Shown here in pieces: positions 20,651 to 37,628 of a stretch of 64,000 bases of DNA. Origin of the DNA: Chloroflexota bacterium. GTDB taxonomy: Bacteria > Chloroflexota > UBA11872 > VXOZ01. The stretch lies in NCBI GenBank assembly GCA_964291655.2, contig OZ219802.1:832001-896000 (forward strand), read 5' to 3'. The position numbers and the translations under genes are program-made. How positions within the stretch are numbered: the first letter of the stretch is position 1; every line of letters starts with the position of its first letter. The notes beneath the pieces were generated by a model, which ran no database searches, was not told where the DNA came from, and saw nothing but the letters and a program-made list of their open reading frames with translations.

Positions 20651-20881
20651 GCCAACTCCTCCATTCAATTGGTTCTTTGACGCCTTCAAAGGCTAAGAAC
20701 TCGCGTTAGACTCAGTTCATTGAAGCAAGAAAAAGCGTGTGCACGACATGCCACTCACCAGGAATGCTGTTTGAGCATCATCTACCGCACTCCGCCTGTC
20801 TTTCGCTCTCCCTGAGCGCATTTGCTACACCGATGATAGCGCAGCAAACTTGCCAAAACAACCTGTGTTGCTAAGCTTCGG

Positions 20882-20910
20882 TTGTCGCTAGCTTTCATGC
20901 ACCATACAAT
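20882..20910 (+). promoter_or_regulatory. Putative sigma70 promoter upstream of the ychF-like gene
   Basis: TTGTCG-N17-TACAAT. Confidence 0.55.
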
Positions 20911-21122
20911 ACGTAACGGATGCCAGGCTGTGGACGCGTGCTAACAGGCCACGCAGACGCGTAAGAGTACGGCCGCACTCTCCTGGCACCCATGCTGCTT
21001 TGGGCGAATCTTCTCCTTCTCCTTGGGGAGAGGGCCGGAGTGAGGGGGACGTTTACTGAGTCCCGGCCAAACTCCTCCAGCCAAACTCACTTTTGCAAGG
21101 GAAACTAAAGGATAGAATCCGG

Positions 21123-22187
21123 ATGCAGATTGGCATAGTTGGGTTGCCGTTCTCCGGCAAGACCACAGTTTTCACTGCCCTTGCCGGCGATGCGTCGGAA
21201 CAGAGCCACCAGTCCCACGGCTTGGAACCAACCCTCGCCACCGTGCGCCTGCCCGATGCCCGCCTCGAGGCGCTCTGTACCCTGTTCGCAACTGAACTGT
21301 GCATCCCCACTGAGGTGCAGTACCTGGATTTTCCCGGCGCCGGATTCGGCAGGCAAGAAAAGGATGCCGCCTGGGTAGGCACGCTCCGCACCGTAGATGC
21401 CCTGCTCATTGTCATTGGCGCCTTCAGCGGCACCCAAGACCCCAGCGACGAACTTGAGAGCATTCATCTCGATCTCGTCTTGCCTGACCTGCAAATCGTG
21501 GAAAGCCGACTGGAGCGGCTCGCGTTGCAATGGCGCACGGCCCCCGCAGCCGAACGCCTCCAACTTGAGCGCGAACAGAGTCTCTTGGAACGCATACAAA
21601 GCGCGCTGGAGCAGGGCGTGCCGGTACGGGCACTGGAACTCTCCGCTGACGAAATACAAGCTATCCGAGGGTACCAGCTCCTCACCATGAAGCCCACTCT
21701 CGTCGTCCTCAATCTCTCTGAGGAACAGATGGCGCAGGCTGAAGAATTGGCCACGAACGTACGCGCCACTTACGCCCACGCGCAGACGACAGTGTTAGGC
21801 CTCTGCGCGCAACTGGAAATGGAAATCGCGCAACTGCCGCCGGCAGAGGCCGAGCTTTTTCGCGAGGACTTAGACCTCGCAGAAGCGGGCGCGGCACGGG
21901 TCGTGCGCGAGTCGCATGCGCTCTTGGGCCTGATCCATTTCTTCACCATGAACGAACAAGAGGTGCGCGCGTGGGCGATTCCGCAAGGCACTAGAGCGCA
22001 AGACGCCGCCGGCAAGATCCACACCGACATGGCGCGGGGTTTCGTCCGAGCGGAAGTGATTCCCTGGGACCAGTTGGTCGAGAACAACGGGTACGGCGAT
22101 GCGCGCAAGCACGGGCTCGTGCGCCAGGAAGGCCGGGATTACGTCGTTCAAGACGGCGACGTGCTCTATATACTCTTCACGCGGTAA
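21123..22187 (+). CDS. YchF/Obg-like ATPase with C-terminal DUF933/TGS domain (divergent paralog)
   Basis: GIVGLPFSGKTT P-loop, DFPG, LLTMKP..VVLN, AAGKIHTDMARGFVRAEV, EGRDYVVQDGD. Confidence 0.85.
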   Translation: MQIGIVGLPFSGKTTVFTALAGDASEQSHQSHGLEPTLATVRLPDARLEALCTLFATELCIPTEVQYLDFPGAGFGRQEKDAAWVGTLRTVDALLIVIGAFSGTQDPSDELESIHLDLVLPDLQIVESRLERLALQWRTAPAAERLQLEREQSLLERIQSALEQGVPVRALELSADEIQAIRGYQLLTMKPTLVVLNLSEEQMAQAEELATNVRATYAHAQTTVLGLCAQLEMEIAQLPPAEAELFREDLDLAEAGAARVVRESHALLGLIHFFTMNEQEVRAWAIPQGTRAQDAAGKIHTDMARGFVRAEVIPWDQLVENNGYGDARKHGLVRQEGRDYVVQDGDVLYILFTR

Positions 22188-22342
22188 GGTGGCTAAAACC
22201 TGACCGTTCGCGCTGAGCTTTGCCTGTCCTGAGCTTGCCGAAGGATCACAGCGTGGCTGAACACTTGGCCGTTCGCGCTGAGCTTGTCGAAGCGTGGACC
22301 TCATTCCAAACGCGCAAGTAAGACACTTGGATTGGCAAGTCG

Positions 22343-22371
22343 TTGTAGATGCTGGCCAGTGTTTATATAAT
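22343..22371 (+). promoter_or_regulatory. Putative sigma70 promoter of the aminotransferase gene
   Basis: TTGTAG-N17-TATAAT. Confidence 0.55.
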
Positions 22372-22418
22372 CATCTTGAGTTCTCTTCCTTCTCTTAGCA
22401 TCTGGAGGCAATCCGCTC

Positions 22419-23582
22419 GTGGCACCCCCAAGCTCCGCGCAGGCAGTAGCCAACCGAATATTGGAATTGACCCCATCCCCTACCATGGCCATGGATGCCA
22501 AGGCCAAAGCCATGGTGCGGTCTGGCATTGATGTCATCAATCTCTCTGTGGGCGAACCGGATTTTGATACGCCGGAACACATCAAAGCGGCTGCCATAGC
22601 CGCGATCCAGGATGGATTCAACAAATACACCCCGGCCGGCGGCATCCCTGAACTCAAAGAGGCCATTGCCGAGAAGCTCTCCCGGGAAAACGGTGTTGAC
22701 TATAGCCCAAGTGAGGTGGTTGCCTGCGTCGGCGGCAAGCAGGCCGTGTGCAACGTCTTTCTCGCGATCTGCGATCCCGGCGATGAGGTTATCGTGCACG
22801 CGCCGACCTGGCCGACCTTCCTCGAGCAAGTCAAACTGGCGCAAGGTGAGCCGGTCACCGTGCCGCTTCATTCGCCCTTCTCGATTACGGCGGACCCACT
22901 GCTCGAGCGCATCACCCCCAAGACCCGGGCCATTCTCCTCAACTCGCCGTGCAACCCCACCGGCGAGGTAGCTGATCCTGCGGAGATCCGCAAACTGGCC
23001 GAAGCATGCGTGGAACGGGGCATCTACTTCATCGCGGACGAGACCTACGAGCACTTTCTCTACGGCGATACTGAGCACCTGTCGCCCGCCTCAATGGGAC
23101 CGGACGAGAAAGCCCACGTAATCACCGTAAATACCGTATCGAAGACGTACGCCATGACCGGCTGGCGCTTGGGCTACGTGGCCGGGCCGGAACCGGTGGT
23201 CAAGGCGATCAACGACCTGATGACACAGATCACGAGTAATCCGACGGCTGCCGCCCAAAAGGCCGCCATTGCCGCCCTCACCGGACCGCAAGACTGCGTG
23301 CGGGAGATGGTCGCTGAGTTTAGCGCCCGTCGCACATTGCTTGTAGAAGGGCTGCGCTCAATTGGCTATACCTGCTCGCTGCCGGGCGGCGCATTCTACG
23401 CTTTCCCGCAAGTCAGAGGGGATGAAGAAGACATGGCGGTTGCCGACCGCCTCTTGGAAGAAGCCCACGTCGCCACCGTGCCGGGGTCGTCGTTCCTCGC
23501 CGACGGCCACCTGCGCATGTCGTACGCCACCAGCCGCGAGAAGCTGCAGGAAGCCCTCGAACGGCTGCGAAAGCTAATGTAA
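22419..23582 (+). CDS. Class I/II PLP aminotransferase (aspartate aminotransferase-like)
   Basis: GEPDFDTP, NSPCNPTG, ADETY, SKTYAMTGWRLGY, GAFY, LRMSYA. Confidence 0.93.
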   Translation: MAPPSSAQAVANRILELTPSPTMAMDAKAKAMVRSGIDVINLSVGEPDFDTPEHIKAAAIAAIQDGFNKYTPAGGIPELKEAIAEKLSRENGVDYSPSEVVACVGGKQAVCNVFLAICDPGDEVIVHAPTWPTFLEQVKLAQGEPVTVPLHSPFSITADPLLERITPKTRAILLNSPCNPTGEVADPAEIRKLAEACVERGIYFIADETYEHFLYGDTEHLSPASMGPDEKAHVITVNTVSKTYAMTGWRLGYVAGPEPVVKAINDLMTQITSNPTAAAQKAAIAALTGPQDCVREMVAEFSARRTLLVEGLRSIGYTCSLPGGAFYAFPQVRGDEEDMAVADRLLEEAHVATVPGSSFLADGHLRMSYATSREKLQEALERLRKLM

Positions 23583-23609
23583 GCGAATGGCATAGCGAGC
23601 AATGCTCCT

Positions 23610-23851
23610 GCGTCCCAAGGATTGCGGTCGGTCGCTTGGACAGCTTCAAGATCAGGTGCTCCCGTGCTGATGGCGGCTTATCGGCCGAATAGCGCACGAG
23701 CAAATGGAAGAGCTTCCAGGCGGATGTTGGCTCGGGAGACGAGACTGCGGACGTCGGTCATGTGGCCGTGAGGGAGCTGCCCACCTTGGAGGAGGACGCT
23801 AGTCAACCATTCAGGAGTGGTCTGCTCCGGGATGGTGAGTAGTTGGGAGAT
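23610..23851 (-). pseudogene. Frameshifted N-terminal fragment of a phosphotransferase-like gene
   Basis: Manual translation ISQLLTIPEQTTPEWLTSVLLQGGQLPHGHMTDV, continuing in another frame as FHLLVRYSADKPPSAREHLILKLS; resembles TPEWLT...L.Y..d.p..AP..L.LK starts of APH/EcKinase-like proteins. Confidence 0.5.
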
Positions 23852-24276
23852 CGTAGCTGTTTCCCCCCGGAAGGTCGTCGTAGCGCCTCAGTACATGAGG
23901 TGCCGCCCCACCTGGTGGCTCTCAGCGGAGCATTCGTCCTGGGGGCCGAGTTGCCACAGAGCGCACAGCGAGGGGGCTGTCAGCATCAGGGGGATGCAGG
24001 ATGGGAGGATGAGCAGTATAGTGGAGATACCATCACGGCGGCGGAAGCCAAAGTCCAGGGGGCCGGGGCACGCTTCACCACACCCCGACACAAAAACCTA
24101 CCTCGCCATTCCCGCGCACGCAGGAATCCAGCGCCGTAGGGGTGTCTCTTGTGGGCGCCCTGGCTGCGGCCGGGGTCTGGGTCAATCACCTGGGTTGCCC
24201 CTGCAGCGGCGACACCTATCCGATGGAGGTGGCCGGGGAAGAGCACCGCTAGGCGAGAATGCACGTAGCACTTCAA

Positions 24277-24305
24277 TTGACAGCAGCAAGGATGGTGCGT
24301 ACATT
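24277..24305 (+). promoter_or_regulatory. Putative sigma70 promoter
   Basis: TTGACA-N17-TACATT upstream of the phosphotransferase. Confidence 0.6.
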
Positions 24306-24427
24306 TTATGCCGCCCCGGAATGAGGTGTTTGCCTAGACATAGGGACATGTTTTCCGAGGAATGGGAGCAAGCCTTGATAGTAGGAGAGGAGCTCTGTCA
24401 TCTGCTTGCTGTGGCGCAGAAACCCGT

Positions 24428-25360
24428 ATGACTGATCCGGCAATCATTCGTGCCGCTTTGACTGCATATGGCCTTGATGGCGCCTCAATCGAGTTGCTGC
24501 AAGACTTCGTCAATGCGTCCTTTCGCGTCGCGGTTGGTGACCAGGCTTACTCTCTGCGCGTCTACGCACCGGATCGCCGTGAGCTCCCGGAAGTGGAGTC
24601 GGAAATGCGTTGGCTGGCAGCGGTTGCCGCGGACAGCGTGATTCCATGCCCCCGACCACTGCGTCTGGCGGATGGTCACTACGCTTGGGAAGCTCCCGGC
24701 GTATGCTTCGTGACCGTGGCCTCCTGGGTTGAAGGCGGCCTGATCCCCAATGCCGAACGGACACCGGCACACTTCGGGCTTGTCGGAGCAATGCTTGCAA
24801 AGCTCCACCTCTTCTCCGAGCGGTGGCAGGCGCCGGTCGGATTCACGCGACCACGCTGTGACGCCGACGGTATCTTCGCCGGGGATCGTCAGGAGCTCGA
24901 TGCCACGCTGAGGTGTGATCTGGCGCGAGCCCAGCAAGAACTGCGGCAGGCGGAGGATGCAATCGGCCGAGACGCCGCAGCTTACGGCCTCGTTCACGGC
25001 GATCCGAGCTTCAGCAACATCCTGTTCGACGTCGACCGGCCGGCCCTCATTGACTTTGACGACTGCGGTTTCGGACACTACGCCTTCGACCTCGCGGTGG
25101 TGCTGGCAGGGGCGTGGGGCAAGCCGAGGTACGCTGTAAATCGAGTCGCGCTTCTCGACGGTTACCAGGAGATCCGCAGACTATCGGAAGTGGAGCGCGC
25201 GGCTCTCCCCGCTCTGATGGCCGCGCGTGCAGCGTCCCTCATCTTCTGGGCCGCCGCCCAGTCAACACCTGAACACAACTGGATATCCGCCCAGTGGGAG
25301 CGGCTACGGGAGTACTTGGAAGGCGCGGCTCCAATGCCGCTCAATCCCCATCAGGAGTAG
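24428..25360 (+). CDS. APH/homoserine kinase type II family phosphotransferase
   Basis: YSLRVY, LAKLH, VHGDPSFSNIL, IDFDD and YAFDLA motifs. Confidence 0.88.
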   Translation: MTDPAIIRAALTAYGLDGASIELLQDFVNASFRVAVGDQAYSLRVYAPDRRELPEVESEMRWLAAVAADSVIPCPRPLRLADGHYAWEAPGVCFVTVASWVEGGLIPNAERTPAHFGLVGAMLAKLHLFSERWQAPVGFTRPRCDADGIFAGDRQELDATLRCDLARAQQELRQAEDAIGRDAAAYGLVHGDPSFSNILFDVDRPALIDFDDCGFGHYAFDLAVVLAGAWGKPRYAVNRVALLDGYQEIRRLSEVERAALPALMAARAASLIFWAAAQSTPEHNWISAQWERLREYLEGAAPMPLNPHQE

Positions 25361-25454
25361 CGCGGGGGCTTGTCCCCCACCTCCTGGCATGAGAGGCTAT
25401 GTCCGAAACCGCCTGTTTCTTTAAGCATAAACACGCTGGAAGTGGAGGCAAACC

Positions 25455-26594
25455 ATGAAGATCAGCGACGTCCAAACCCATATTGTAAGTGGCGGCACGC
25501 GCAACTACACATTCGTCACCGTCACCGAGGAGAACGGCCTCTACGGCATTGGCGAGTCCGGCTGCTCCGGCAAGGACAAGGCCGTGGCGGCGGCCGTGGA
25601 GCACTACCGGCCGCTGCTCATCGGCCAGGACCCCGCGCGCATCGAGCACATCTGGCAGGACCACTTTCGCGGCAACTTCTGGCGGGCGGGCCCGGTGCTC
25701 ACAGCGGCCATTTCGGCCCTCGACATCGCCCTCTGGGACTTGCTTGGCAAGGCCCTCGAGGTGCCAACCTACCAACTGCTCGGCGGCAAGACCCGCGACA
25801 AAGTGCGTTGTTACGCCCATTTTGGCGGCGGGACCGACAGCCCGGAGTCTTTTGCGCAGTCCGCGCAAGCGCGCGTGGATGAAGGCTTCGAAGTGGTGCG
25901 GTTCGGCCTGCCGACCGATCCGGGCGACATTCTGGAACCGGCGCGGGCAGTGTGCAATGCGGTGGAAGCCTTCCAAGCCGTGCGTGAGACCGTGGGGCAT
26001 GAGATTGAAATCGCCCTCGACGTGCATACGCGCCTCAACCCGACGTGGGCAATCCAGTTATGTAAACGACTTGAGCCGCTCCGTCCCTTCTTCATCGAAG
26101 ACCCCATTCGCTCGGAGAACCCGCAATCATTCGCTAATTTGCGCCACCACACCAGCGTGCCCATCGCCACCGGCGAGCAGCTTATCACCAAGTGGCAGTT
26201 CCGCGAGCTCATCGAGAACGAACTGATCGACTACATGCGCGCCGACCTCGGTCTTGTCGGTGGAATCACTGAAGGCAAGAAGATCGCCGCTATGAGCGAG
26301 GTGCACTACATCGACTCGGCTCTGCACAATCCGCTGGGCCCTGTGAACACCGCCGCCAGCGTGCAGCTTGATATGTGCATTCCCAACTTCGGCATTCAGG
26401 AACTTTCCATGGTTCCACCGGCCATGACCGACATCTTCCCCACCCAGTGCCGTGTGGAGGCCGGACACCTCTATCCCGCCGACGTGCCTGGGATTGGCAT
26501 CGAGTTCAACGCCGAGGCAGCAAAACAGTACCCGTATCAGTACTGGGAACACGCCCGGCTACACCGGGACGACGGTTCACTCACAGACTGGTAA
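25455..26594 (+). CDS. Mandelate racemase/muconate lactonizing enzyme family dehydratase (DgoD-like)
   Basis: SALDIALWDLLGK, LDVHTR, FIEDP, ATGE, HNPLGP, IQE; GGAGG RBS. Confidence 0.92.
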   Translation: MKISDVQTHIVSGGTRNYTFVTVTEENGLYGIGESGCSGKDKAVAAAVEHYRPLLIGQDPARIEHIWQDHFRGNFWRAGPVLTAAISALDIALWDLLGKALEVPTYQLLGGKTRDKVRCYAHFGGGTDSPESFAQSAQARVDEGFEVVRFGLPTDPGDILEPARAVCNAVEAFQAVRETVGHEIEIALDVHTRLNPTWAIQLCKRLEPLRPFFIEDPIRSENPQSFANLRHHTSVPIATGEQLITKWQFRELIENELIDYMRADLGLVGGITEGKKIAAMSEVHYIDSALHNPLGPVNTAASVQLDMCIPNFGIQELSMVPPAMTDIFPTQCRVEAGHLYPADVPGIGIEFNAEAAKQYPYQYWEHARLHRDDGSLTDW

Positions 26595-26648: not shown

Positions 26649-27668
26649 CTATCCGTTGGCTACTACGATTTCAGCGCCTGCACGTACATGGCACGTGAAG
26701 CGCACACGCCCTTCACCGGCCGCAGTGACATTTGCAATGCCATCCGGCCCTTGAATGTGCACGGGTCCAGGATCTTCAGCAAAGGAGACGAGAAACGTCA
26801 GCTCACCCTTCTCAATCTGCAGCGGCAGTTGCGGGAAATCCAGCGTGATGGTGGCATGGGTATCCGAATCCTGCGTGACCGCTGGCGCGCAGTGGCGCCG
26901 CAGGTAGGCATAGCGCACGACGTCGTCCGGATTCGCGGCCCACATGTTGGCGCCAAAATGCGTCCGCATTTGGTCGAAACGCCCCTCCAGCGCGTAGGGC
27001 GAGATGCACTTGTGTCCCTGCGGCGTCTTGTACATGACCAGGTGCGTGACATCCACCAGCCACTTGCCCTGCACGCGCTCCGGTTCGAACCCGCCGCGCG
27101 AGAGCCACGGAGGCAGGTATGCTATGGCGTCGTCCTCGCACAGGCGGTTGCGCCAGATGCTGAACGGATCGAAGTCCGGCTGGTTTACATGTTCCGCGTC
27201 GTTGGAGGCGCGTGTCAGACCGAGATAGCCCGGCACGCGTTGCACCCACGCCCGCACCGTGTCGTAGACCTCGAAGCTATTCCACGATGAGAAGATCGGC
27301 GCCGGCTGTCCCAGCGCCTGTTCCAGGATGCGGTAGGACTCCACGATCTCCTGTGCAAAATCGATGCTGTCCGGTTCGCGCAACGGCGGATGGCAATAGC
27401 TGTGGTTGCTGATGCTCCAACCCTGCGACAGAAGAAACTTGAGGTGGTCCGGCCCCATGTGGAAAAAGTCGTTGAGGGAACTGCGCTCGACGTGGCGCTT
27501 TTCTCCCAGTTGCCCGGCCACCACCGCCACGTCGCCGGGAATGTCGTACTGCTGCGCGAGGGGAAACGCGTTGGCCAAACAGTCGATGGTGCCCTCGTCA
27601 AAGACCACCGAGTAGACGAAGCTGGCGTCGTCTTTCCAGGGGGCCACCTCTACGGACGAAATCCTCAT
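26649..27668 (-). CDS. Polysaccharide deacetylase (NodB-like) family protein
   Basis: VVFDEG and WSISNHSYCHP metal motifs; GAAGGAG RBS before ATG 27668. Confidence 0.7.
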   Translation of the reverse strand: MRISSVEVAPWKDDASFVYSVVFDEGTIDCLANAFPLAQQYDIPGDVAVVAGQLGEKRHVERSSLNDFFHMGPDHLKFLLSQGWSISNHSYCHPPLREPDSIDFAQEIVESYRILEQALGQPAPIFSSWNSFEVYDTVRAWVQRVPGYLGLTRASNDAEHVNQPDFDPFSIWRNRLCEDDAIAYLPPWLSRGGFEPERVQGKWLVDVTHLVMYKTPQGHKCISPYALEGRFDQMRTHFGANMWAANPDDVVRYAYLRRHCAPAVTQDSDTHATITLDFPQLPLQIEKGELTFLVSFAEDPGPVHIQGPDGIANVTAAGEGRVRFTCHVRAGAEIVVANG

Positions 27669-27923
27669 CGCAACTCCTTCTCGCCATGAACTTCGTGGCT
27701 CTGACGGCATACAGCGAGCGTGGGCTCAGCACAGCTTGCTGTCACTACTATGAGAGTAGCCGCTACAGACGGTCTTGTTCCGGTAGCGTAGGTTTGCAAC
27801 CTGCGCTCGCTGCCCAAATGCCGGAAGTATACTAACTCTTACCCGAACCCGCTTTGGGACGGAATTCACTGCTACCCACGCTGCCTGGACTCCGGCTTTC
27901 GCCGTCCTACGCGTCTTCCAAGA

Positions 27924-29264
27924 CTAAGATATCCGCGCCGAGTCGTAGACGCCCGCCATGCCCAGATCCAGCGGGTTTACCTGCACCCAGACCTCTTCCG
28001 GCTGCGCGTCGTCTTTCAACTCCAGCGAGACCGAGACCCGCTCCAGACCAGGCACCGGCGCAATGCAATGCCCAATTTGCCGCCGGATCAGGATGTTCGA
28101 CTCCTCGCGGGTGGCATCGGCGTCGGCAGCAGTTTTCGGGTCGCCGTTGAATGCCACTGCAAGCATCCGAGTGACATCGAATGCGCCGGTATTCTCCACT
28201 ACGATATCAGCTAGCAGCCGTCCATCTTCCCGGCGTACGCGTGATGCCTCCGTGTCAATGCGCAATCCCGCCGAAAGCTCGCCTGGTGTGAGCGAGACCG
28301 CCCGGTAGGCATCGAAGATGCCATGTCCAAGCAACGGTTCCCAGCCGGATCCCTGCGACGTATTGCGCAGAATCTGTCGAATCTCCACGTTGGAAAGGTG
28401 CGGATAGCGCGAGAACGCCAGCGCCGCGACGCCGCCGCCAAAGGCGGACGCCATGCACCCGCCCTCGAAGGGAATGTAGTCGAGGTCGCCGCCGGTTCCC
28501 CAAACTGACTCGGTGGGGTCGTCCGTATAGCGTTCGCCGCCGGGTGTGGCCGCCTCCACGTAATCCGCCGATGCCGCGATGTTCGCTGCTTGACCGTGCC
28601 GGTTCGTCGAACCGACGGCAAAGACGCTGTCAATGCCAGCATTCACGGTTGCTACCCGCCTACCGCGGTTGTCGGCCGTACCTTTGAAAACCAGGCAGCC
28701 CGATTGGTAGGCGTAGTCCAGCGCCTCGATCAGGCCGATATTGTCGTAGGGATAGCTGAAGTCGATGCCCTTGTAGAACAACGGGACGCCGTCCGTGTGG
28801 TCCATAGTGATGTAGCCATGGGGCATCACGAGCACCTTGGCGCCGTGATCGACCGCATAGCGTACGGCGCGTGGCCAGCTCTTCTGGTGATGCGGCTCGT
28901 AGCCCACGCGCAACACCATGATCGGGCACTTGGGCGCCGTCGCGGCTACTTCGCCCACGACAAACGCGTGGTGACCGCGATGATACATCGTGTCAGAGCG
29001 CGACCCCTCATATTCAAGCGTGGCGTCTTCCTCGGCAAAGTCCCAGCCGTGCACGTCGCCCCGCGTGGGCCGTGGATTGACCCACAGGTGACCCTCATGA
29101 TCGGGATGATAACGATAGCCCAGGTCTATCACCGCCACGATTACGTCAGGACTGCCCTGTGTGATGGCATGTGCTTCCGTCACACGCATCTGATCGAGCG
29201 CCCAGTCGTACGGCTCTCGCACGCCCTCCGGCAGCACGCCGCTCTGCTTCTCGGCTATGGCCAT
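27924..29264 (-). CDS. S8 subtilisin-family protein with Cys in place of the catalytic Ser
   Basis: VAVIDLG (Asp), GHHAFVVGEVAA (His), TADNRG (oxyanion Asn), EGGCMASAFGGGVAAL (nucleophile), DVHGWDF, GHGIFDA; AAGGAG RBS before ATG 29264; no signal peptide. Confidence 0.85.
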   Translation of the reverse strand: MAIAEKQSGVLPEGVREPYDWALDQMRVTEAHAITQGSPDVIVAVIDLGYRYHPDHEGHLWVNPRPTRGDVHGWDFAEEDATLEYEGSRSDTMYHRGHHAFVVGEVAATAPKCPIMVLRVGYEPHHQKSWPRAVRYAVDHGAKVLVMPHGYITMDHTDGVPLFYKGIDFSYPYDNIGLIEALDYAYQSGCLVFKGTADNRGRRVATVNAGIDSVFAVGSTNRHGQAANIAASADYVEAATPGGERYTDDPTESVWGTGGDLDYIPFEGGCMASAFGGGVAALAFSRYPHLSNVEIRQILRNTSQGSGWEPLLGHGIFDAYRAVSLTPGELSAGLRIDTEASRVRREDGRLLADIVVENTGAFDVTRMLAVAFNGDPKTAADADATREESNILIRRQIGHCIAPVPGLERVSVSLELKDDAQPEEVWVQVNPLDLGMAGVYDSARIS

Positions 29265-29340
29265 GTGACTCTCCTTTTGCGTCTGTAGAACATCAAACAA
29301 GCACGTGTTCTTGGTGAATCCGATAGTGTCGCCATTGTCC

Positions 29341-29789
29341 GTCATTCCGGCGAAAGCCGGAATCCAGTCTTCACCGCGCACACCCGAGATACCGCCCCGC
29401 GATCAACGTTGCAAAGCCAAGCAATTCGCGGGAAGGGCGTATTGAGGTGATCTTCTCCTTGTAGCGCGGGGGCTTGTCCCCCGCTCTTGAGATTGAGCAC
29501 AAGGGCTGAAGACTCGGTGGTAAAGTGTGGTTGTAAGCAGGAGAAGATGGATTCCCGCTTTCGCGGGAATGACGGACGGCGCGCCCCTCATGTTGCCCTC
29601 TCACCTCCGCTCATCTATAGGCCATCTTCAACGTACATATGTCGGATGATGCCCCTCTCCCTGTCCTCTCTCCCTCACTTGTAGCCCTTTTTCAAACACT
29701 CAAAAAACGGTTAGAGAGCCGACCACACTTCGCATTCCTAACTCTGCCCAAACCAAGACCATGGTCATTCCGACTTTCGCCGGAATCCA
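29341..29789. repeat. Cluster of GTCATTCC-N-GGAATCCA and GTAG-type REP-like palindromes
   Basis: GTCATTCCGGCGAAAGCCGGAATCCA 29341, GTAGCGCGGGGGCTTGTCCCCCGC 29461, inverse copy about 29548, third copy 29764; others at about 24107 and 35401-35621. Confidence 0.85.
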
Positions 29790-29799
29790 GTCTTCTTGC

Positions 29800-30909
29800 T
29801 CACACAATAGCCACTTCCTGCGGGATCGTCCCCAACCGCTCGAATCCATCTTCCCTAAGCACGTACATGTCCTCCTCGAGCCACGAGGACTCCAGCGAAA
29901 CGACGTTGTTCTCCGCAAACAAGATTTCCGGCCGCACGTCAACGGCGGACGGCAGCAAGCTGCCGATCAACGGTTCTTCATGTTTATCCATGCCCACGCC
30001 GTGAATCCACCAGGCATATTCATCAATGCCCCTAAACTCACGCTGGCAAGCGTCAAAGACCTCTCGCTTAGTCTTGCCGGGCCGTACGAAGTCTTCCATA
30101 AAGAGCTGCCGCTCGCGGTGCTCCCGCCAGACCGCCAAGCTTTCCTTGCGCGGCGTGCCGACGCAGAAGTTGAACTTCTGGTCGGAAAAATAGCCGGCAG
30201 AGACTGCAGCAAGGTCGACACGGTAAACCAGACCCGCTTCAACGACACCGGGGCTACGAATCACGGCGGCGTTCGGTTGCTCCCGCGAGCTCGTACCGCC
30301 GTGGGGCAGCATCCACGAGACCGGCGACGTGTTGATGGGCAAGGCCCCGTTATCCAGCACCGCTTTGGCCCATACGGTCACGAGGTCTTGAAAGGACATG
30401 CCCTCGCGAACTTCCTGCAGCATCTCGCGATAACCGGCCTCCGAGGCGGCAATTGCCTTACGGAGCCACCGAATCTCCTCCGGCGTCTTGCACGCCCGCG
30501 CCTCGGCGAGCAACAAGTCGGCGGAAACAAACGTGGCCCCCGGCAGCAATTCCTCAAGCCTTCGCAGATCGCTCACCGCGGCAAATTCCATATCCAGACC
30601 GATGCGCGCCCGCGCCAGCCCCCGCTGGTGCATTTGACTTGCGAGTTCCGCCAGCCGCGCCGCACGGGCATGGTCGGGCCCTAAGCTGTCAACCGGCAAA
30701 TCTGAATTCCTAAGCCGACCGCCAAACGTAAACGACCGGCCGGGGGGAATGAGACACGTCATCCACGGCGCCAACCCCTGCGGCTCATTGAGCCACGGCC
30801 CTTCGCTGACCGCGCCCGCCAGGTACGCGCAGTTGCGCATGCCCAGCGTGACCAGCGCATCGAGCCGCTGCTCCGCCATTGACCTCGTTATGCCCGCAAT
30901 ATCAGCCAC
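29800..30909 (-). CDS. M24 family (Xaa-Pro peptidase/creatinase-like) metallopeptidase
   Basis: RACKTPEEI, VDL...GYFSD, HGVGMDKHE, SLE and EEDM metal ligands. Confidence 0.85.
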   Translation of the reverse strand: MADIAGITRSMAEQRLDALVTLGMRNCAYLAGAVSEGPWLNEPQGLAPWMTCLIPPGRSFTFGGRLRNSDLPVDSLGPDHARAARLAELASQMHQRGLARARIGLDMEFAAVSDLRRLEELLPGATFVSADLLLAEARACKTPEEIRWLRKAIAASEAGYREMLQEVREGMSFQDLVTVWAKAVLDNGALPINTSPVSWMLPHGGTSSREQPNAAVIRSPGVVEAGLVYRVDLAAVSAGYFSDQKFNFCVGTPRKESLAVWREHRERQLFMEDFVRPGKTKREVFDACQREFRGIDEYAWWIHGVGMDKHEEPLIGSLLPSAVDVRPEILFAENNVVSLESSWLEEDMYVLREDGFERLGTIPQEVAIV

Positions 30910-31192: not shown

Positions 31193-33010
31193 CTAATTCA
31201 AGGTCTCCAACCAAATTGGGCTCGTCCACGCGCGATTGCCGTCCTGCTGCCGCACGCGCAGGTAGCAGTAGTGGACATCCATCGGTGAGTACCGCAGCGG
31301 CACCTCGTCCTCCAATTGCACGTGTTGCCGGCTGGGTGTGTAGCTTCTGACCGTGTCGCCATTCACAACCAGGTCGATCTGTTCGATGTCCGCCGTACCC
31401 ACCACGTCCGCCGTAAACGTGAATTGGCCTCCTTGCACCGTGGAACCTATCCAATTGTCGTTCACGCGAAAGTCAACGATCATGCGCACGCCGCTTGTCG
31501 CGTAGCAGCGCCGGTTGAAGAGCGCGTCGAAGATTGACGGCTTGTCTAACCGTTCCGCCCAGACGCCGGTGAGCCCGGCCACACCGGTCAGCGGCCCCGG
31601 TTCCTTGTAGGGATTGGCAGGCCGGCTGTCGTGGGTATCGCTTCCGCTCACGAAGCCGAGCTTCACGCCTTGCATCAGGTACTGATTAATCTTCTCCTCT
31701 TCCACCTCGCCGTCCGTTCTCTGCTTCTGAAATATCTCCGCCAGGTGTTCCTGGACGTAGAAGTGCGTATGGAAGTGACCGTGCATTAGCGCGCCCCGGC
31801 GCTTCATCTCGCGATAGAACTCTTGATAGTCGTTGCAGAAGACCGTATCCGGGTGAAAGCGCGCCTGGAGTTTCGGATCGTGTGCCGCGGGACGATCTTC
31901 GCAGAACACCGGCGGCTGTCCCACAATCTCCGGAAAGAAGGCATGGCGGTGGCTACCGTCGGGAGTGGTGCCGAATTCCGCCGAAGGCAGCGCGACGAAC
32001 TCCCCGGGCAGGTCGTACTGCTGCCACGCATCCTGGAGCTTTTCCCACGTTTCTTTGATAGAAATACTGTAGGAGAACAACTGGCCGCCGGCAAAGTCGA
32101 GGTCATTCACATCTTTGCCCCAAGCAAAGTGTTCCTCGATGGGCCGCTGGCTGAAGAGCATGCCGTGGGGATCGCCCCAATAGAGCGAGAGGGGCGGCGG
32201 CTCCTCTGCCACCCGTACCGGGTTGCTCACCGCCTCGATGCCCCGATACGACGCCGTAACACAGTCAACCGGCCCCCGCACGGGAATCGTCCCTGCGGCG
32301 CTAAACGAACTTAGCGCGACCGTTTTTTCGCCATTGCCGGACCGCAAGGTCACCTCTCCCTGGGCATCGCGTACCGGATTGCCAAACTTATCGGTGACGA
32401 CGACGCGCGTGGCCGCTTGCCCCGTGGTATGCGAAGGCGTGGTTACTTGCAGCGCCGCCGGTTCAGCCTCCCTGATCGTGAGGGGATTACTCTCCAGCAA
32501 GGATAGTTCCGCGTCCCGCGGCAGGAAGTAGTGGTGTTTGTCGCGTTCCGGGTGGTAGAACGTAAGCTCACCGGACGGGTCCTCGACCAGCCAAAAGCGG
32601 AAGGCGTCGATGGCATTGCGGGGGAGCAAGAAGCCGTCAGGGGCAGTGCGCAGTTGCACCGTTACACGCTCTGCGGCTTTCACTGCGCCCGCAACGCACT
32701 TCACGTGCACCACGTGGAGGAATTCAGGCGCCGGAGCATGGATATCAAACGTCCGCACCACGCCGCCAGCAACGAGCGCCTCGGCTTCCCACGCCGACCC
32801 CACCGGCCCGCGGACCGCTATGGAGTCCGGCCAAGCGAAGTTGAGCACCCACTCGTCAAGCTGGCGAATGTCAAAGAAGAACCAAAGATTCCCACCCGCC
32901 TGCAGACCGCCCGCCGGCGGCGAGTAGTGAAGCTGCAGCGTGACTGTTTCAGCAACTTGCAGCGGGCCGTCCACACTGACCCGGAAGCGTCCGCTCTGCC
33001 CCAAAGACAT
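31193..33010 (-). CDS. DUF3604 / PHP-like metallohydrolase (paralog A)
   Basis: SNPV...LYWGDPH, GSDTHDSRP, GLTGVWAE, RRCYATSG, YLRVRQQDGNRAWTSPIW. Confidence 0.8.
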   Translation of the reverse strand: MSLGQSGRFRVSVDGPLQVAETVTLQLHYSPPAGGLQAGGNLWFFFDIRQLDEWVLNFAWPDSIAVRGPVGSAWEAEALVAGGVVRTFDIHAPAPEFLHVVHVKCVAGAVKAAERVTVQLRTAPDGFLLPRNAIDAFRFWLVEDPSGELTFYHPERDKHHYFLPRDAELSLLESNPLTIREAEPAALQVTTPSHTTGQAATRVVVTDKFGNPVRDAQGEVTLRSGNGEKTVALSSFSAAGTIPVRGPVDCVTASYRGIEAVSNPVRVAEEPPPLSLYWGDPHGMLFSQRPIEEHFAWGKDVNDLDFAGGQLFSYSISIKETWEKLQDAWQQYDLPGEFVALPSAEFGTTPDGSHRHAFFPEIVGQPPVFCEDRPAAHDPKLQARFHPDTVFCNDYQEFYREMKRRGALMHGHFHTHFYVQEHLAEIFQKQRTDGEVEEEKINQYLMQGVKLGFVSGSDTHDSRPANPYKEPGPLTGVAGLTGVWAERLDKPSIFDALFNRRCYATSGVRMIVDFRVNDNWIGSTVQGGQFTFTADVVGTADIEQIDLVVNGDTVRSYTPSRQHVQLEDEVPLRYSPMDVHYCYLRVRQQDGNRAWTSPIWLETLN

Positions 33011-33305: not shown

Positions 33306-35120
33306 CTAGGCCATGGACTCCAACCAGACCGGGCTCGTCCATGCGCGGTTGCCGTCCACCTGCCGCACACGCAAGTAGCAGTAGTTTGCGCCAACCGGCG
33401 AAAACCGCAACGGTACCTCGTCCTCCAACTGCACGTGCTGCCGATTGGGTGTGTAGCTCTTGGCCGTGTCTCCGTTTACCACCAGGTCAATCTGCTCGAT
33501 GTCTTCAGTCCCGACGACGTCGGCAGTAAAGCCAAAGCCGTCGGACTTTACCGTGGAGCCTATCCAACTGTCGTTCACACGGAAGTCCACGATGATGCGC
33601 ACGCCGGTGGTGGCGTAGCAGCGCCGGTTGAAGAGCGCATCGAACAGTGTGGGCCTATCCAGCCGCTCCGCCCAAACTCCCGTCAGTCCGGCGGGACCGG
33701 ACGGCCCCGGTTCCTTATAGGGATTCGCGGGCCGGTTGTCGTGCGTGTCGCTTCCGCTGACAATGCCGAGCCTGACGCCCCGCATCAGGAATTGGTTTAT
33801 CTTTTCCTCTTCCGTAACACCGTCTGTCTGCTGCTTCTGGTAGATCTCGGCCAGGTGTTCCTGCACGTAGAAGTGGGTGTGAAAGTGACCGTGAATGAGC
33901 GCGCCCCGCCGTTTCATCTCCCGATAGAACTCTTGATAGTCGTTGCAGTAGACGGTATCGGGATGGTACCGGGCGTGCAGTTTGGGGTCGTTGGCGGCTG
34001 GGCGGTCCTCACAAAAGACCGGCGGCTGTCCCTCAGGCGCGGGGAAGAAACCGTGACGGTGACTGCCGTCGGGACCGGTGGCGAATTCCGCCGACGGCAA
34101 GGCGACGAATTCGCCCGGTAGATCATACTTCCTCCATGCGTCCTGCAATTCTTCCCATTTCTCGCTTATGCAGATGCTGTAGGAAAAGAGCTGGCCCCCG
34201 GCGAAGTCGAGATCGTTTACGTCCTTGCCCCACGCAAAGTGCTCGACAATCGGGCGCTGGTTGAAGAGCATGCCGTGGGGGTCTCCCCAATAGAGCGAGT
34301 ACGGCCCGGTGTCTTTGTCAACGCGCACCGGGTTGCTCACGGCCTGGATATCCCCGTATACCGCCGTTACACGATCGGCAGGACCCTGCACCTGCACCGT
34401 ACCCTCAGCGCCGAAAGAATTGAGTACAGCAGTTGTTTCATCACCGCCGGTACGCAGGGCAACTTCTCCTTCCGCGTCGTGGACAGGATTGCCAAACCTA
34501 TCCGTAACGACGACCCGTGTCGTTGCTTGTCCCGCGGCAAGAGAGGGAGTGGTCACCTGCAACACAGCCGGTTCGGCGGCAGTAATCGAGAGCGGGTTAC
34601 TCTCCAAAACCGAGAGTTCCACCTCGCGCGGTAGAAAGTAGTGATATTTTTCGCGGTCGGGATGGTATAGCTCGAGTTCTCCAGCCAGGTCTTCCACCAA
34701 CCAGAAGCGGAAGGAGTCGATGGCATTTACCGGCAGCAGGAAGCCCTCGGGTACGCTGCGCAGTTCTACGGCAATCTGCTCGCCTTCCGCGACCGAACCG
34801 CTAGCGCACCTCACGTGCACCGCATGGAGGAATTCGGGCGCTGGAGGATGAATATCAAACGTCCGCACCGTGCCGCCGTTGACGAGCGCCTCTGCTTCCA
34901 AGGAAGTTCCAGCCGGCCCCTCGACAGTGATACCGCCCGATGCTTCAAATGCGTGCCTGCGATCGCCAAACTGACGGATGTCGTAGAAAAACCAGAGGTT
35001 GCCACCGGACTGCATGCCGCCAGCAGGAGGCGTGTAGTGCAACTTCAGAGCCACAGTCTCCGCAACCTGCAGCAGCCCTTCCGCACTAACCTGAAACCGT
35101 CCGTTGGCACTCGCAGACAT
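33306..35120 (-). CDS. DUF3604 / PHP-like metallohydrolase (paralog B, close duplicate of A)
   Basis: Co-linear with 31193-33010 over the full length, same motifs. Confidence 0.8.
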   Translation of the reverse strand: MSASANGRFQVSAEGLLQVAETVALKLHYTPPAGGMQSGGNLWFFYDIRQFGDRRHAFEASGGITVEGPAGTSLEAEALVNGGTVRTFDIHPPAPEFLHAVHVRCASGSVAEGEQIAVELRSVPEGFLLPVNAIDSFRFWLVEDLAGELELYHPDREKYHYFLPREVELSVLESNPLSITAAEPAVLQVTTPSLAAGQATTRVVVTDRFGNPVHDAEGEVALRTGGDETTAVLNSFGAEGTVQVQGPADRVTAVYGDIQAVSNPVRVDKDTGPYSLYWGDPHGMLFNQRPIVEHFAWGKDVNDLDFAGGQLFSYSICISEKWEELQDAWRKYDLPGEFVALPSAEFATGPDGSHRHGFFPAPEGQPPVFCEDRPAANDPKLHARYHPDTVYCNDYQEFYREMKRRGALIHGHFHTHFYVQEHLAEIYQKQQTDGVTEEEKINQFLMRGVRLGIVSGSDTHDNRPANPYKEPGPSGPAGLTGVWAERLDRPTLFDALFNRRCYATTGVRIIVDFRVNDSWIGSTVKSDGFGFTADVVGTEDIEQIDLVVNGDTAKSYTPNRQHVQLEDEVPLRFSPVGANYCYLRVRQVDGNRAWTSPVWLESMA

Positions 35121-35258: not shown

Positions 35259-35752
35259 GCAGGACTGCAAGCCCACGCTTGAATACATGCAGGCACAGCA
35301 TAAAACGGAGAGGAAGGATTCCGCGCCGTTTACACGAGAATCACCATGGCCTTACATAGGCCGCACAGGGGATTGAAGAGCGGCGGCTGGCTTCCTGACC
35401 GTCATTCCGGCGAACGCCGGAATCCAGGGAGTGGGCGACGAAGTTAGATTCCGCGCCCCCACGCGGGGCGAATTCTCGCGGGAATGACGGAAGTCCTTCG
35501 TCTCCGCCGTAGCGCGGGGGCTTGCCCCCCGCTCCTGTGCGTGAGCATGAGGGCTGAAGACCCAGTGGTGATGTGTGGTTGAAGGAAAGTGAAGATGGAC
35601 TCCCGATTGCGCCGGAATGACGGACGACGCGTTCCTCGCGCTACCCTCGCACCTTCGCTCATCTATAGGCTTTACTCAACATACAAATGACAGAATTCAC
35701 ATCCACTTGAATGAATATCGCCAACGTTCAGAGGGCAAGCTGTGCAAAAAGC

Positions 35753-37303
35753 TTAGAAGACGCGGCGGGCGTCTTCAATCCAAATGGGGCTCGACCACGC
35801 CATCTCGCCGTCTTCCTGCGTTACCCGCACGTAGTACCAGTCGGCACGGTCTTGGGGCATGTCCAGGTCATCCAACGAGAAGACGCACTCCCAACCAGGC
35901 TCTTCCACAACGTGCCAGTCGTGATTGTTCTTGACTACCACCACTTTGGCAAGCGGCGCGGTGCCGTGGACGCGCACCCGCATTTGTTTGGGCGGCGTTT
36001 GCACACTGATCGTCTCGCCCATGGGCTGGTTGTCCACGCTGAAATCAAGCAGGATGCGCACACCGGTGGTGCCGATGGTGCGGCGGTTCCAAAGCCCGCT
36101 GAACATGGCGTCGCGCTCGCGGCGGCGCGACCAGAGTCCCGTCATACCGGCGTGGTGGTTGAACGTCGTCAGCTTAATGGGCAAGTGCGCAATCTGCACG
36201 CTGCTCGTGGGGCGGCCGTCGTGACTCTCGCTGCCACCCACAAAGCCAAACCGGAAGCCCTGCCGCAGCCCGTCCTGCAAGAAATGCCCAGTGGCCTCGA
36301 AAGGAGGATACTCCGCTTGGGGTTCGTCCCATTGCGTCCGTTCATTCCTCCCCTTGAGGGCGTAGGGCTCGCCCTCGTGCTCGCTGCTGCCCCAATGGCT
36401 ATAGACTTCCATAAGTCGCTCGAACTCCGGGTCCATGGTCTCCCAATTGTGCCAGATGCGATTGCCCAGGCGGGCGGGGTGATGGGGTATCGAAAGAATG
36501 TCCCTGCCGGTTCGGGAAAGGCTTCTGAAGACGTTGAAGAGGTCCTGCGGCGTGTTTGATCCTTTCCAGTTGCTGGAGATGAGCGGCATGTCGCCGTGCC
36601 GAAAGATCACGTTGCGGTGGCCGCAGTCGGCGTCCGGCCCCCGGTTCCACGACCACTCGTAACCCAGCAGCGTCACGAACCGCTCCGGTTGGTTGAAGTA
36701 CTCCGCGCCTTCTTGTATTTCGCGCCATTCATCCGTGCTCAGCGCGTAGTCGTGGTCGGTCAGCGCCGTGAAGTCCAAGTGCACCACGTCGCGGGCAAAA
36801 CGGTACACCTCATCGACGGTAGCGGGTCCATAGCTCCACAAGAGAGGATCGGTGCGCTTGCGGCTGGGGTTTTCCAAGCGGTGGCAATGCAGGTCGCCCC
36901 AATAGAGCTTGTGGTCGCCTTTGTACATGAACGCAGGCGCCCAGGCGGGATTGCTGATGGCTTCGATGCCGGTCTCGCGATCTCGCGCGCGCACGCGAAA
37001 GACTCGATCTTTCTCCGCAACCGCACCCCGCACGGCATGATGGCTGTCGTACTCCGGCAGCATCGGCACATCTGCCGGGACCTCACCGCTTGCTCCCTCT
37101 AGAGACAACTCAAGACGGGCGCTCTGCTGCGGTAGGTGGAACCCCCACCTATCCCGCAATTCAAGGCCGATCGCGAATTCGCCGTTGCTCACGTCCGGCG
37201 GCACTATGCTGGGCACGGTCACGCGAATTTCCGCTAACTCCGGTGTTCCCTGGTAGTCCAGCGGCAGCCGAATGAGGTTTTGATCAAATTCCTCTGCACT
37301 CAT
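35753..37303 (-). CDS. DUF3604 / PHP-like metallohydrolase (distant paralog C)
   Basis: WGDLHCH, LTDHD, GYEWS, GHRNV, IPHH, GGSESH, YYVRVTQEDGEMAWSSPIW; GAGGAG RBS. Confidence 0.85.
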   Translation of the reverse strand: MSAEEFDQNLIRLPLDYQGTPELAEIRVTVPSIVPPDVSNGEFAIGLELRDRWGFHLPQQSARLELSLEGASGEVPADVPMLPEYDSHHAVRGAVAEKDRVFRVRARDRETGIEAISNPAWAPAFMYKGDHKLYWGDLHCHRLENPSRKRTDPLLWSYGPATVDEVYRFARDVVHLDFTALTDHDYALSTDEWREIQEGAEYFNQPERFVTLLGYEWSWNRGPDADCGHRNVIFRHGDMPLISSNWKGSNTPQDLFNVFRSLSRTGRDILSIPHHPARLGNRIWHNWETMDPEFERLMEVYSHWGSSEHEGEPYALKGRNERTQWDEPQAEYPPFEATGHFLQDGLRQGFRFGFVGGSESHDGRPTSSVQIAHLPIKLTTFNHHAGMTGLWSRRRERDAMFSGLWNRRTIGTTGVRILLDFSVDNQPMGETISVQTPPKQMRVRVHGTAPLAKVVVVKNNHDWHVVEEPGWECVFSLDDLDMPQDRADWYYVRVTQEDGEMAWSSPIWIEDARRVF

Positions 37304-37628
37304 GGCGTTGCTCCTCAGCATATTTGCAGGTGACGTCTTCAGATGGCCAGACCTGAACCTAAGTGGCTAGACCTTCTAAGCTCATTGTGTATCAGTATTT
37401 TGTGCTACCGACAAAAAACTACCCTAACCGAAACTGTACCCGTACTGTTATCCATTATTTGTGGTAGTTCTCACACACTGCTAGCATTGTGTGGAGAAAG
37501 TCTGTTAGGTACAAAGGGACTTGACCAAGCCGATGATTAAATGCAGTCGATTCTTGGATTTCGCTCCTCTGCACACATCGGATTGAATCAAGTGCCCACC
37601 TCAATGAGCTTCGCAAGGAGAAATTTAT

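Follow-up and report, generated by a model that had tools for sequence, protein, structure and literature searches.

A natural, conserved family of subtilase homologues with cysteine at the nucleophile position, encoded in an uncultured Chloroflexota bacterium and in other phyla

Several protease clans have exchanged serine and cysteine nucleophiles in nature. To our knowledge, the subtilisin clan has been regarded as purely serine, and its cysteine versions, namely, thiol-subtilisin, subtiligase and peptiligase, as only chemical or engineered. A gene of a Chloroflexota bacterium (assembly GCA_964291655.2, contig OZ219802.1) raises the question of whether a cysteine subtilase also exists as a natural enzyme and, if so, what its function may be. 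The gene is located on the minus strand, at positions 27924..29264 of a stretch of 64,000 nucleotides (contig positions 832,001 to 896,000), hereafter called the window, and encodes a subtilase homologue, P0001, with cysteine at the position of the catalytic serine. A first-pass annotation of the window described it as an evolved Asp-His-Cys subtilase rather than a product of decay, and possibly a cytoplasmic ligase, transacylase or (thio)esterase rather than a protease. No report of a natural cysteine-nucleophile subtilase was found in the full-text literature, with subscription journals and supplements outside the scope of the search and an earlier mention, for example in MEROPS notes, being possible.

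P0001 matches the Pfam family PF00082 (Peptidase_S8) with 52.7 bits, the cut-off being 21.8, over residues 40-315. The best NCBIfam model is that of mycosin, TIGR03921, with 99.2 bits, which is below its cut-off of 278.75. The subtilase catalytic domain, delimited by the Pfam match, the profile alignment to variants of subtilisin BPN' and the core of the predicted structure (predicted local distance difference test, pLDDT, above 90), covers about residues 18-327 (28284..29213, on the minus strand, as are all features of this gene given below). The active-site residues are encoded by the codons GAC at 29124..29126 (Asp47, corresponding to Asp32 of BPN'), CAC at 28971..28973 (His98, corresponding to His64), AAC at 28668..28670 (Asn199, corresponding to the oxyanion-hole Asn155 and followed by conserved Arg200, Arg202 and Arg203) and TGC at 28455..28457 (Cys270, at the nucleophile position, Ser221 of BPN'). 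The codon GCC at 28443..28445 encodes Ala274 at the position of Pro225. All coordinates quoted in the first-pass annotation, including those of the Cys and Ala codons of GGCMASA, agree with the DNA, and its strings VAVIDLG, GHHAFVVGEVAA, TADNRG and EGGCMASAFGGGVAAL are all present in P0001.

The nucleophile segment of P0001 reads GGCMASA, while subtilisins read GTSMA(S/T)P there. In HMMER alignments, Cys270 falls on the serine of the thermitase motif GTSMATP; in alignments with the engineered S221C chains of BPN' (1V5I, 1SUB, 1SUC and 1GNS), it falls on Cys221 and Ala274 on Pro225, reproducing the gap-free alignment proposed earlier. Among solved sequences, the best match of the family profile is 1GNS (3.3e-19), with the chains 7AM3-7AM8 close behind. 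The sequence of 1GNS, a subtilisin BPN' variant, shows GTCMASPH and lacks the stretch that would join the His helix to VAPS. The profile pairs G-H98-H-A-F-V-V-G-E-V-A-A-x-A-P with S-H64-G-T-H-V-A-G-T-V-L-A-V-A-P of 1GNS; on the basis of this alignment, His98 is taken as the equivalent of His64, in support of the earlier assignment of the catalytic histidine, and the segment of the calcium loop (residues 75-83), to judge also from alignment to solved structures, is absent from the family. Asn199 pairs with Asn155 (AAGNEG of 1GNS), and Arg200 with Glu156. Two further departures from 1GNS are the lack of two residues in the 97-104 segment and the presence of about 23 extra positions after the strand equivalent to 121-125 (profile positions 145 to 169 gapped). 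The latter correspond to a family-specific segment at about residues 148-171 (28752..28823), consisting of PHGY and an insertion of ~20 residues with invariant G166 and D168, which probably replaces the region of the SLGG substrate-binding strand of subtilisin; a structural role is likewise presumed for it from the alignment.

A serine peptidase in the MEROPS sense carries Asp, His and Ser in this order, with Ser as the nucleophile; P0001 has Asp47 and His98, and its nucleophile position is Cys270. By its sequence, the P0001 family belongs by homology to the S8 fold family and yet lacks the defining serine.

The search for relatives with a word index returned 174 proteins, the best 120 of which are 47-87% identical to P0001. 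The core-family alignment comprised 117 sequences from many phyla: P0001 and 116 of these best 120, with the partial sequences P0004, P0012, P0087 and P0110 omitted. In all 117, Cys270 is invariant, together with G268, G269, M271, D47, N199 and R202; H98 and R203 are conserved in 116 each, and R200 in 114. Since the nucleophile position is occupied by cysteine in every member, the database name of the relatives, ‘S8 family serine peptidase’, is inexact. Within the genus, an orthologue was found in 15 of 16 other genomes, the sole miss being a genome 69% complete. The 15 same-genus orthologues carry the cysteine codon as TGC (13) or TGT (2), and the median ratio of nonsynonymous to synonymous substitution rates (dN/dS) over their 105 pairs is 0.058 (range 0.031-0.107, Nei-Gojobori method, dS ~1.06). 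The cysteine is conserved, and the gene is under purifying selection, with dN/dS well below 1.

Alanine at position 225 was a further element of the first-pass annotation, and here only one part of the claim holds. A small residue (Gly, Ala or Ser) is typical of the family, being present in 116 of 117 members, and proline never occurs; alanine itself is a minority state (9 members, against Gly in 102, with Ser in five and Glu in one). A natural Cys nucleophile can evidently do without a small residue at 225, since sister Cys clades keep proline and the family of the paralogue described below varies between Gly, Pro and Ala.

The occurrence of cysteine is wider than the core family. Searched exhaustively with phmmer, 1.84 billion representatives yielded 5994 matches at E <= 1e-3, including 30 at E <= 1e-30, and 148 listed representatives were mapped onto P0001, with two already in the core alignment left out. 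Cysteine is kept in 24 relatives, down to ~30% identity, and thus also in proteins more distant than the core family with its motif GGCMA[SA][GA]F. In these distant relatives, Pro225 is often retained along with the classical HGxH (P0138, P0139, P0142 and P0147, for instance, read GGCMATPHV), and several of them have glutamate at the position of Asp32. A quick tree of 123 S8 domains, built by maximum likelihood, groups all 24 Cys rows inside one clade of 26 rows (Shimodaira–Hasegawa-like approximate likelihood-ratio support 99), and the same clade was recovered with a mixture model in a quick tree of 59 rows. The clade also includes P0137, with Ser, and P0146, with Gly at the aligned column, possibly owing to a misalignment by one column; none of the other 97 rows of the larger tree has cysteine. 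A single origin of Cys subtilases is compatible with these data, not proven by them, the tree being unrooted and its sample consisting of matches to the P0001 query.

Only two columns truly separate the Cys from the Ser rows, namely, the nucleophile and the residue preceding it; two other columns flagged as separating look like alignment artefacts. The preceding residue is Gly in 96% of the 24 Cys rows and in none of the 92 Ser rows, 89 of which have Thr, so that the change T220G accompanies cysteine, as had been supposed. Taken with the conserved tetrad, the low dN/dS and the grouping of the Cys rows in one clade, this bears out the description of P0001 as an evolved Asp-His-Cys subtilase, and one under selection, as against a decayed or mis-sequenced serine protease.

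The proteins P0138, P0139, P0142 and P0147 are secreted-looking Cys subtilases of 572-1210 amino acids, three of them multidomain, with the motifs GGCMATPH or GGCMANPH and with tandem beta domains. A signal peptide is present in each of the three sequences inspected, and P0138 carries extra lectin-like domains, including a Laminin_G-like domain. Natural thiol subtilases are accordingly not confined to the cytoplasm.

A second Cys subtilase, of 467 amino acids, is encoded in the same genome (G000:C1:407086-408489; positions 805-2208 of locus L002, minus strand). It has glutamate in place of the catalytic Asp (AVIEKGI), a DHGTH motif and SGGCMAIGHV at the nucleophile. The combination Glu-His-Asn-Cys is present in all 25 full-length members of its family. 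The paralogue shares with P0001 the Cys superclade, GGCM, a C-terminal domain with Q-x-G-H and the lack of a signal peptide; it is distinguished by the Glu acid, the classical DHGTH, the varying residue 225 and another gene context, namely, two solute-binding proteins, an M14-like protein and a glutamine-synthetase-like gene.

The structure of P0001 was predicted by AlphaFold2 from the core-family alignment (mean pLDDT 94.6, predicted template modelling score 0.93). The model consists of a subtilase alpha/beta core and an all-beta C-terminal domain. Strand 42-47 has D47 as its last residue, and helix 93-109 contains H98; N199 comes after strand 191-195, and helix 270-286 begins with C270. For D47, H98 and C270 these sites are, we assume, the canonical subtilase positions. 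The C-terminal domain, residues 334-446 (27927..28265), corresponds to the beta-rich extension noted previously and forms about eight strands over residues 334-445; it contains invariant Q396, H399 and G406 (RQIGH motif). Its profile gave only a weak CARDB-like match among PDB sequences (2KUT at E 0.19), which is a lead, not a finding. No longer fused forms were found at E <= 1e-30, which is weak evidence, and P0123 (555 amino acids) and a 980-amino-acid reading frame in locus L055 showed no additional Pfam domain.

The N-terminus of P0001 comprises only 17 residues before the conserved PYDW and contains no hydrophobic segment, in agreement with the earlier remark that a signal peptide and a prodomain are lacking. 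Across the family, the number of residues before PYDW has a median of 16 and a maximum of 52, so that no member has room for a prodomain. The N-terminus is not hydrophobic in 108 of 117 members; nine are above the hydrophobicity threshold, and at least seven of these resemble signal peptides, including those of planctomycete loci. P0001 is thus predicted to be cytoplasmic, and such a location, as judged from the N-termini, is typical of the core family without being a rule for Cys subtilases.

Comparison with known systems shows the closest likeness to engineered enzymes. Thiol-subtilisin, subtiligase, peptiligase and omniligase (1GNS, 1V5I, 1SUB, 7AM3-7AM8) share with the family the fold, Cys221 in a gap-free G-x-C-M-A-S, a small residue 225 and the lack of the 75-83 loop. 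According to those parts of Toplak et al. (2021, PMC7921005) that concern these variants, S221C gives a thioester acyl-enzyme favouring aminolysis, with drastically reduced activity; P225A eases the crowding around the larger sulfur, and a good ratio of synthesis to hydrolysis needs a small residue (Gly or Ala) at 225. Peptiligase is described in the same parts of that paper as S221C combined with small-225 changes and deletion of the calcium-binding loop, and 7AM3-7AM8 as omniligase precursors. All three engineered features, Cys at 221, a small residue 225 and the absence of the calcium loop, are found in the natural family, in which a thioester acyl-enzyme would be expected by the same analogy; the retention of Pro225 in sister Cys clades is a counter-observation to this likeness. 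Unlike the engineered ligases, the family is natural, ancient and under purifying selection, with ~30-35% identity over the aligned parts; it has Thr220 replaced by Gly, PHGY and an insertion instead of SLGG, an Arg-rich S1 rim and an additional C-terminal beta domain, lacks a prodomain, and would have ligase activity only by analogy.

The S8A subtilases (thermitase, subtilisins BPN' and Carlsberg) share with the family PF00082, the order Asp-His-Asn-nucleophile and the motifs around each of these residues, but have Ser instead of Cys; the family is predicted to be cytoplasmic, has no signal peptide or I9-type propeptide and occurs in another gene context. Mycosins of type VII secretion (4KB5, 4J94) provide some of the best PDB matches to the catalytic domain in its C-terminal half; they are membrane-anchored serine enzymes, and no ESX genes were seen in the part of the window neighbourhood examined. 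Intracellular subtilisin proteases of Bacillus and relatives are cytoplasmic, lack a signal peptide, and have a Ser nucleophile and a short N-terminal inhibitory extension, whereas P0001 has a Cys nucleophile and only ~17 residues before the core.

What the enzyme may act on was approached through its gene neighbourhood. The context set consisted of 79 related loci from species-representative genomes. Same-genus orthologues (L015-L027 and L030) and a same-genus set of paralogues at 57-59% identity (L029 and L031-L035) were left out of the 28 diverse loci analysed, in which neighbours were counted by tblastn. A gene of a CE4-like (Polysacc_deac_1) protein was found in 17 of 28 loci, in 12 of them within 300 bp of the subtilase gene and always on the same strand. 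A Gfo/Idh/MocA dehydrogenase gene is also present in 17 loci (within 300 bp in six), a DegT aminotransferase gene in 11 (within 300 bp in one), a URO-D/MtaA-like gene in 10 (within 300 bp in six) and a gene of an AraC regulator in seven (within 300 bp in one). Genes of DUF3604 proteins occur in five loci, belonging to other phyla, in none of them within 300 bp, and M14-like genes in three, in all of them within 300 bp and adjacent. At least one recurrent neighbour is present in 23 of the 28 loci. The arrangement is compact, with overlapping or near-abutting genes, in the spirochaete locus L053 and the clostridial locus L062. The nearest NCBIfam resemblances of the neighbours, all of them below cut-off, are to UDP-GlcNAc 3-dehydrogenase or inositol dehydrogenase, sugar aminotransferases and MtaA-type methyltransferases.

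In the window, the CE4-like gene lies downstream of the subtilase gene, at 26649..27710 on the minus strand (PF01522, 38.6 bits against a cut-off of 23.1), and its real start is probably at 27668. Residues D38, E39, H103, S104, H107 and H223 of this partner are conserved in 15 of 15 sequences, and D38-E39, H103-S104-x-x-H107 and H223 are presumably the metal-binding and catalytic motifs of CE4. Prediction of a complex between the subtilase and its CE4-like partner returned no answer (score 0.00) and is evidence neither way. The CE4-like family has four copies in the genome itself, including G000:C2:1576510-1577502, 2179921-2180922 and 2318891-2319886, and three to four copies in each sampled genome of the genus, and occurs in hardly any of the 292 other Chloroflexota genomes sampled.

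The subtilase profile matches nine of 301 sampled Chloroflexota genomes, which are all those sampled from the genus of the window, and the CE4-like profile matches 11 of 301, namely, the same nine and, more weakly, two of another genus. A link between the two genes is supported by this shared phyletic pattern, by the CE4 residues kept in the partner and by a correlation between the distance matrices of the two proteins over 13 loci (Mantel r 0.49, one of 2000 permutations as high). In the phylum of the Kiritimatiellae locus, the subtilase was found in the seed genome only (1/301). Because the family is rare and patchy, yet present across many phyla, horizontal spread of an accessory operon may be proposed.

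These data are interpreted as follows. P0001 is very probably an active thiol enzyme of subtilase fold, to judge from the conservation of the predicted triad Asp47-His98-Cys270 and of the oxyanion-hole Asn199. Since it lacks a signal peptide and a prodomain, the reducing cytoplasm is the predicted site of its folding and action. Cys270 would be activated by His98, itself oriented by Asp47, and, in analogy to thiol-subtilisin, would attack the acyl carbon of an amide or ester and form a thioester acyl-enzyme, the oxyanion being stabilised by Asn199 and backbone amides. The acyl-enzyme would be resolved by water or by an amine; resolution by water, with release of the acid, is preferred here. 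The remodelled binding strands, the Arg-rich S1 rim (R200, R202 and R203) and the operon partners point to a substrate that may be non-protein or conjugated and bear an anionic group, for example an amino sugar that is N-acylated or aminoacylated, or a fragment of a glycopeptide. The conserved C-terminal beta domain, bearing Q396 and H399, would be part of this remodelling. The recurrent operon would comprise the CE4-like metal deacetylase, the Gfo/Idh/MocA dehydrogenase, the DegT-type aminotransferase, the URO-D/MtaA-like protein and the AraC regulator, and the product would be processed further by the deacetylase, the transaminase and the dehydrogenase. The sequence data show the identity and conservation of the residues, the purifying selection, the single clade and the gene neighbourhood, with a confidently predicted fold; from these we infer that Cys270 is the working nucleophile, what kind of substrate is used and that it is hydrolysed. 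The assignment to an amidohydrolase or acyl-transfer step in a cytoplasmic pathway, acting on an N-acylated amino-sugar or glycopeptide-like compound, and not to general proteolysis, is tentative; the reading as a whole, blending the active thiol enzyme with the pathway role, is favoured with moderate confidence.

A number of observations weigh against this reading. As fetched, 11 of the 28 diverse loci have no CE4-like gene. In five loci, each of them planctomycete, there is no recurrent neighbour at all, and four of these encode proteins with signal-peptide-like N-termini. The neighbours fall below every specific NCBIfam cut-off, so that the pathway is a putative one. In Chloroflexota, the co-occurrence of the subtilase and CE4-like genes is limited to a single genus and so amounts to one event, and the correlation of their distance matrices could reflect shared host phylogeny alone. 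H99, adjacent to the presumed catalytic His98, is also highly conserved (112 of 117), the choice between them following from the alignment. Finally, in the parts of PMC7921005 on thiol-subtilisin, the engineered enzyme is a poor amidase, and for this reason the natural Cys version may prefer esters, thioesters or acyl transfer over amide hydrolysis.

The four planctomycete loci mentioned, L046, L052, L054 and L058, come from metagenome-assembled genomes and represent a subclade of the core family with signal-peptide-like N-termini and without recurrent operon neighbours, which suggests a different, exported role for this subclade.

The explanation that best withstands comparison with the proposed amidohydrolase is an ordinary intracellular peptidase with a swapped nucleophile, that is, a cytoplasmic thiol endo- or exopeptidase functionally similar to intracellular subtilisins. 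The S8 fold with a complete tetrad is what such an enzyme would have, and peptidase-like genes lie nearby: an M24/creatinase-like gene is adjacent in the genus, and the M14-like gene is adjacent in three of 28 diverse loci and also stands near the paralogue. This explanation is nevertheless unlikely, as the peptide-binding strands are remodelled (the 23-position gap relative to 1GNS and the two residues missing in 97-104), an Arg cluster occupies the S1 rim, containing an invariant Arg, and the commonest neighbours are enzymes of sugar type, not peptidases or peptide transporters; the rarity and patchiness of the family in the two phyla sampled are also unlike a housekeeping protease.

The M24/creatinase-like gene, identified by Pfam, is located upstream of the subtilase gene at 29800..30909 on the minus strand; it is a neighbour only within the genus and was found in none of the 28 diverse loci. 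The M14-like protein, similar to zinc carboxypeptidases and ~386 amino acids long, is distinctive and adjoins the Asp-His-Cys subtilase in the phylogenetically diverse loci L038 (6794-7957), L057 and L049. Its relative, 30% identical (E 5e-41), is encoded in locus L094 (5082-6242), two genes from a Glu-His-Cys paralogue.

A natural ‘subtiligase’ would catalyse mainly aminolysis: an ester or thioester would donate its acyl or peptidyl group to an amine, with formation of an amide bond in biosynthesis, whether by ligation, cyclisation or aminoacylation of an amino sugar. The features shared with peptiligase fit such an activity, the best solved match being the loop-deleted S221C variant 1GNS, as do the preference of thioester acyl-enzymes for aminolysis and the good synthesis/hydrolysis ratios with Gly or Ala at 225 described in the cited parts of PMC7921005. 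The DegT aminotransferase of the operon (11 of 28 loci) could provide the amine acceptor. However, no gene of an acyl-activating enzyme, a carrier protein, an ATP-grasp protein or a precursor peptide recurs nearby in the loci examined, and the recurrent neighbours (AraC regulator, deacetylase-like protein, dehydrogenase and aminotransferase) would be more usual in an operon for catabolism or sugar modification. Pro225, moreover, is kept in sister Cys clades, and the ratio of aminolysis to hydrolysis is not readable from sequence. On balance, a ligase is improbable, somewhat more so than the peptidase. A broader proposal is to be regarded as equally doubtful, according to which there exists an unrecognised natural superclade of Cys subtilases, both Asp-His-Cys and Glu-His-Cys, cytoplasmic and secreted, and the core family is a natural peptiligase, free of the calcium loop and with Gly or Ala at 225, performing acyl transfer (formation or exchange of amide bonds) instead of hydrolysis on an amino-sugar or peptide-conjugated metabolite. 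If this were true, the subtilisin clan would be a mixed-nucleophile clan.

Subtilase pseudoproteases, such as CspC and CspA, are known, and P0001 might similarly be a non-catalytic homologue that only binds a ligand or partner. The defining serine is gone, and the engineered change S221C costs subtilisin most of its activity, as described in the part of PMC7921005 dealing with it. Yet pseudoenzymes usually lose several catalytic residues, while the 117 sequences keep Asp, Asn and Cys throughout and His in all but one; what stands in place of serine is in every case the one residue able to act as a nucleophile, T220G co-varies with it, and dN/dS is 0.058, which makes a pseudoenzyme very improbable. 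An artefact, that is, a sequencing or assembly error of TCC to TGC or a private mutation, although requiring only one transversion, is refuted and has a negligible probability, since close homologues, rather than all having Ser, carry Cys in 117 of 117 cases, the 15 same-genus orthologues use both TGC and TGT, and the 24 relatives retain Cys down to ~30% identity. A role in defence was also considered and rejected, no PADLOC family having been found for P0001 or its CE4-like partner; the generic PADLOC model ‘subtilase’ was matched only by the Glu-His-Cys paralogue.

The coding sequence of P0001 consists of 446 codons and a stop, with ATG at 29264 and TAG at 27926-27924. A Shine-Dalgarno-like AGGAG, whose function is presumed from the sequence, lies 7 nt upstream of the ATG, at 29271..29275 on the minus strand. 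The longest open reading frame, 27924-29381 with a GTG start, is probably too long, and 29264 is taken as the start, because all 15 same-genus orthologues begin at this ATG (MAIAE/MAITE...) and a repeat element of 25 nt overlaps the part added at the 5' end. The element is palindromic and GC-rich and is present in three copies in the window, at 29341-29365 (minus), 29549-29573 (plus) and 35401-35425 (minus), with 0-2 mismatches and a chance expectation of 0; two of the copies form an intergenic inverted pair upstream of the subtilase gene. The spurious extension DWIPAFAGMT of the longest frame is a translated copy of it. A promoter and terminator scan around the gene gave nothing above the shuffled expectation.

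Contigs ~95% identical to the gene were found in two further public runs (X7 and X8), spanning the whole gene without insertions or deletions and, among the differences listed, without a change at 28455-28457; close relatives of the source organism therefore occur in other samples. One of the runs is labelled as a sponge metagenome.

Farther from the subtilase gene, the window contains three tandem DUF3604 paralogues, at 31193-33010, 33306-35120 and 35753-37321, all on the minus strand and each with a match to a CehA/McbA-type metallohydrolase domain. On the other side, the region 19907-26594 encodes an arylmalonate-decarboxylase/Asp-Glu-racemase-like protein, the GTPase YchF, a class I/II aminotransferase, an APH-type kinase and an enolase-superfamily (MR/MLE) protein. 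This is a mixed catabolic set, no member of which recurs with the subtilase in other phyla.

The existence of a conserved natural clade indicates that the subtilase scaffold can evolve what would be a working thiol site, and provides a precedent in evolution for nucleophile exchange in the subtilisin clan, a natural counterpart of a classic result of protein engineering. Some of its changes, namely, the small residue 225 and the loss of the calcium loop, match the later engineering of subtilisin; the replacement of Thr220 by Gly comes in addition and has no counterpart in the engineered changes cited here, and glutamate can apparently stand for aspartate once cysteine is the nucleophile. The annotation ‘S8 family serine peptidase’ is flagged as a systematic mis-annotation, and the family may offer hundreds of natural starting points for engineering peptide ligases and transacylases. 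For the uncultured Chloroflexota, Verrucomicrobiota, Armatimonadota and others that carry it, it points to an uncharacterised operon that appears to be horizontally scattered among them.

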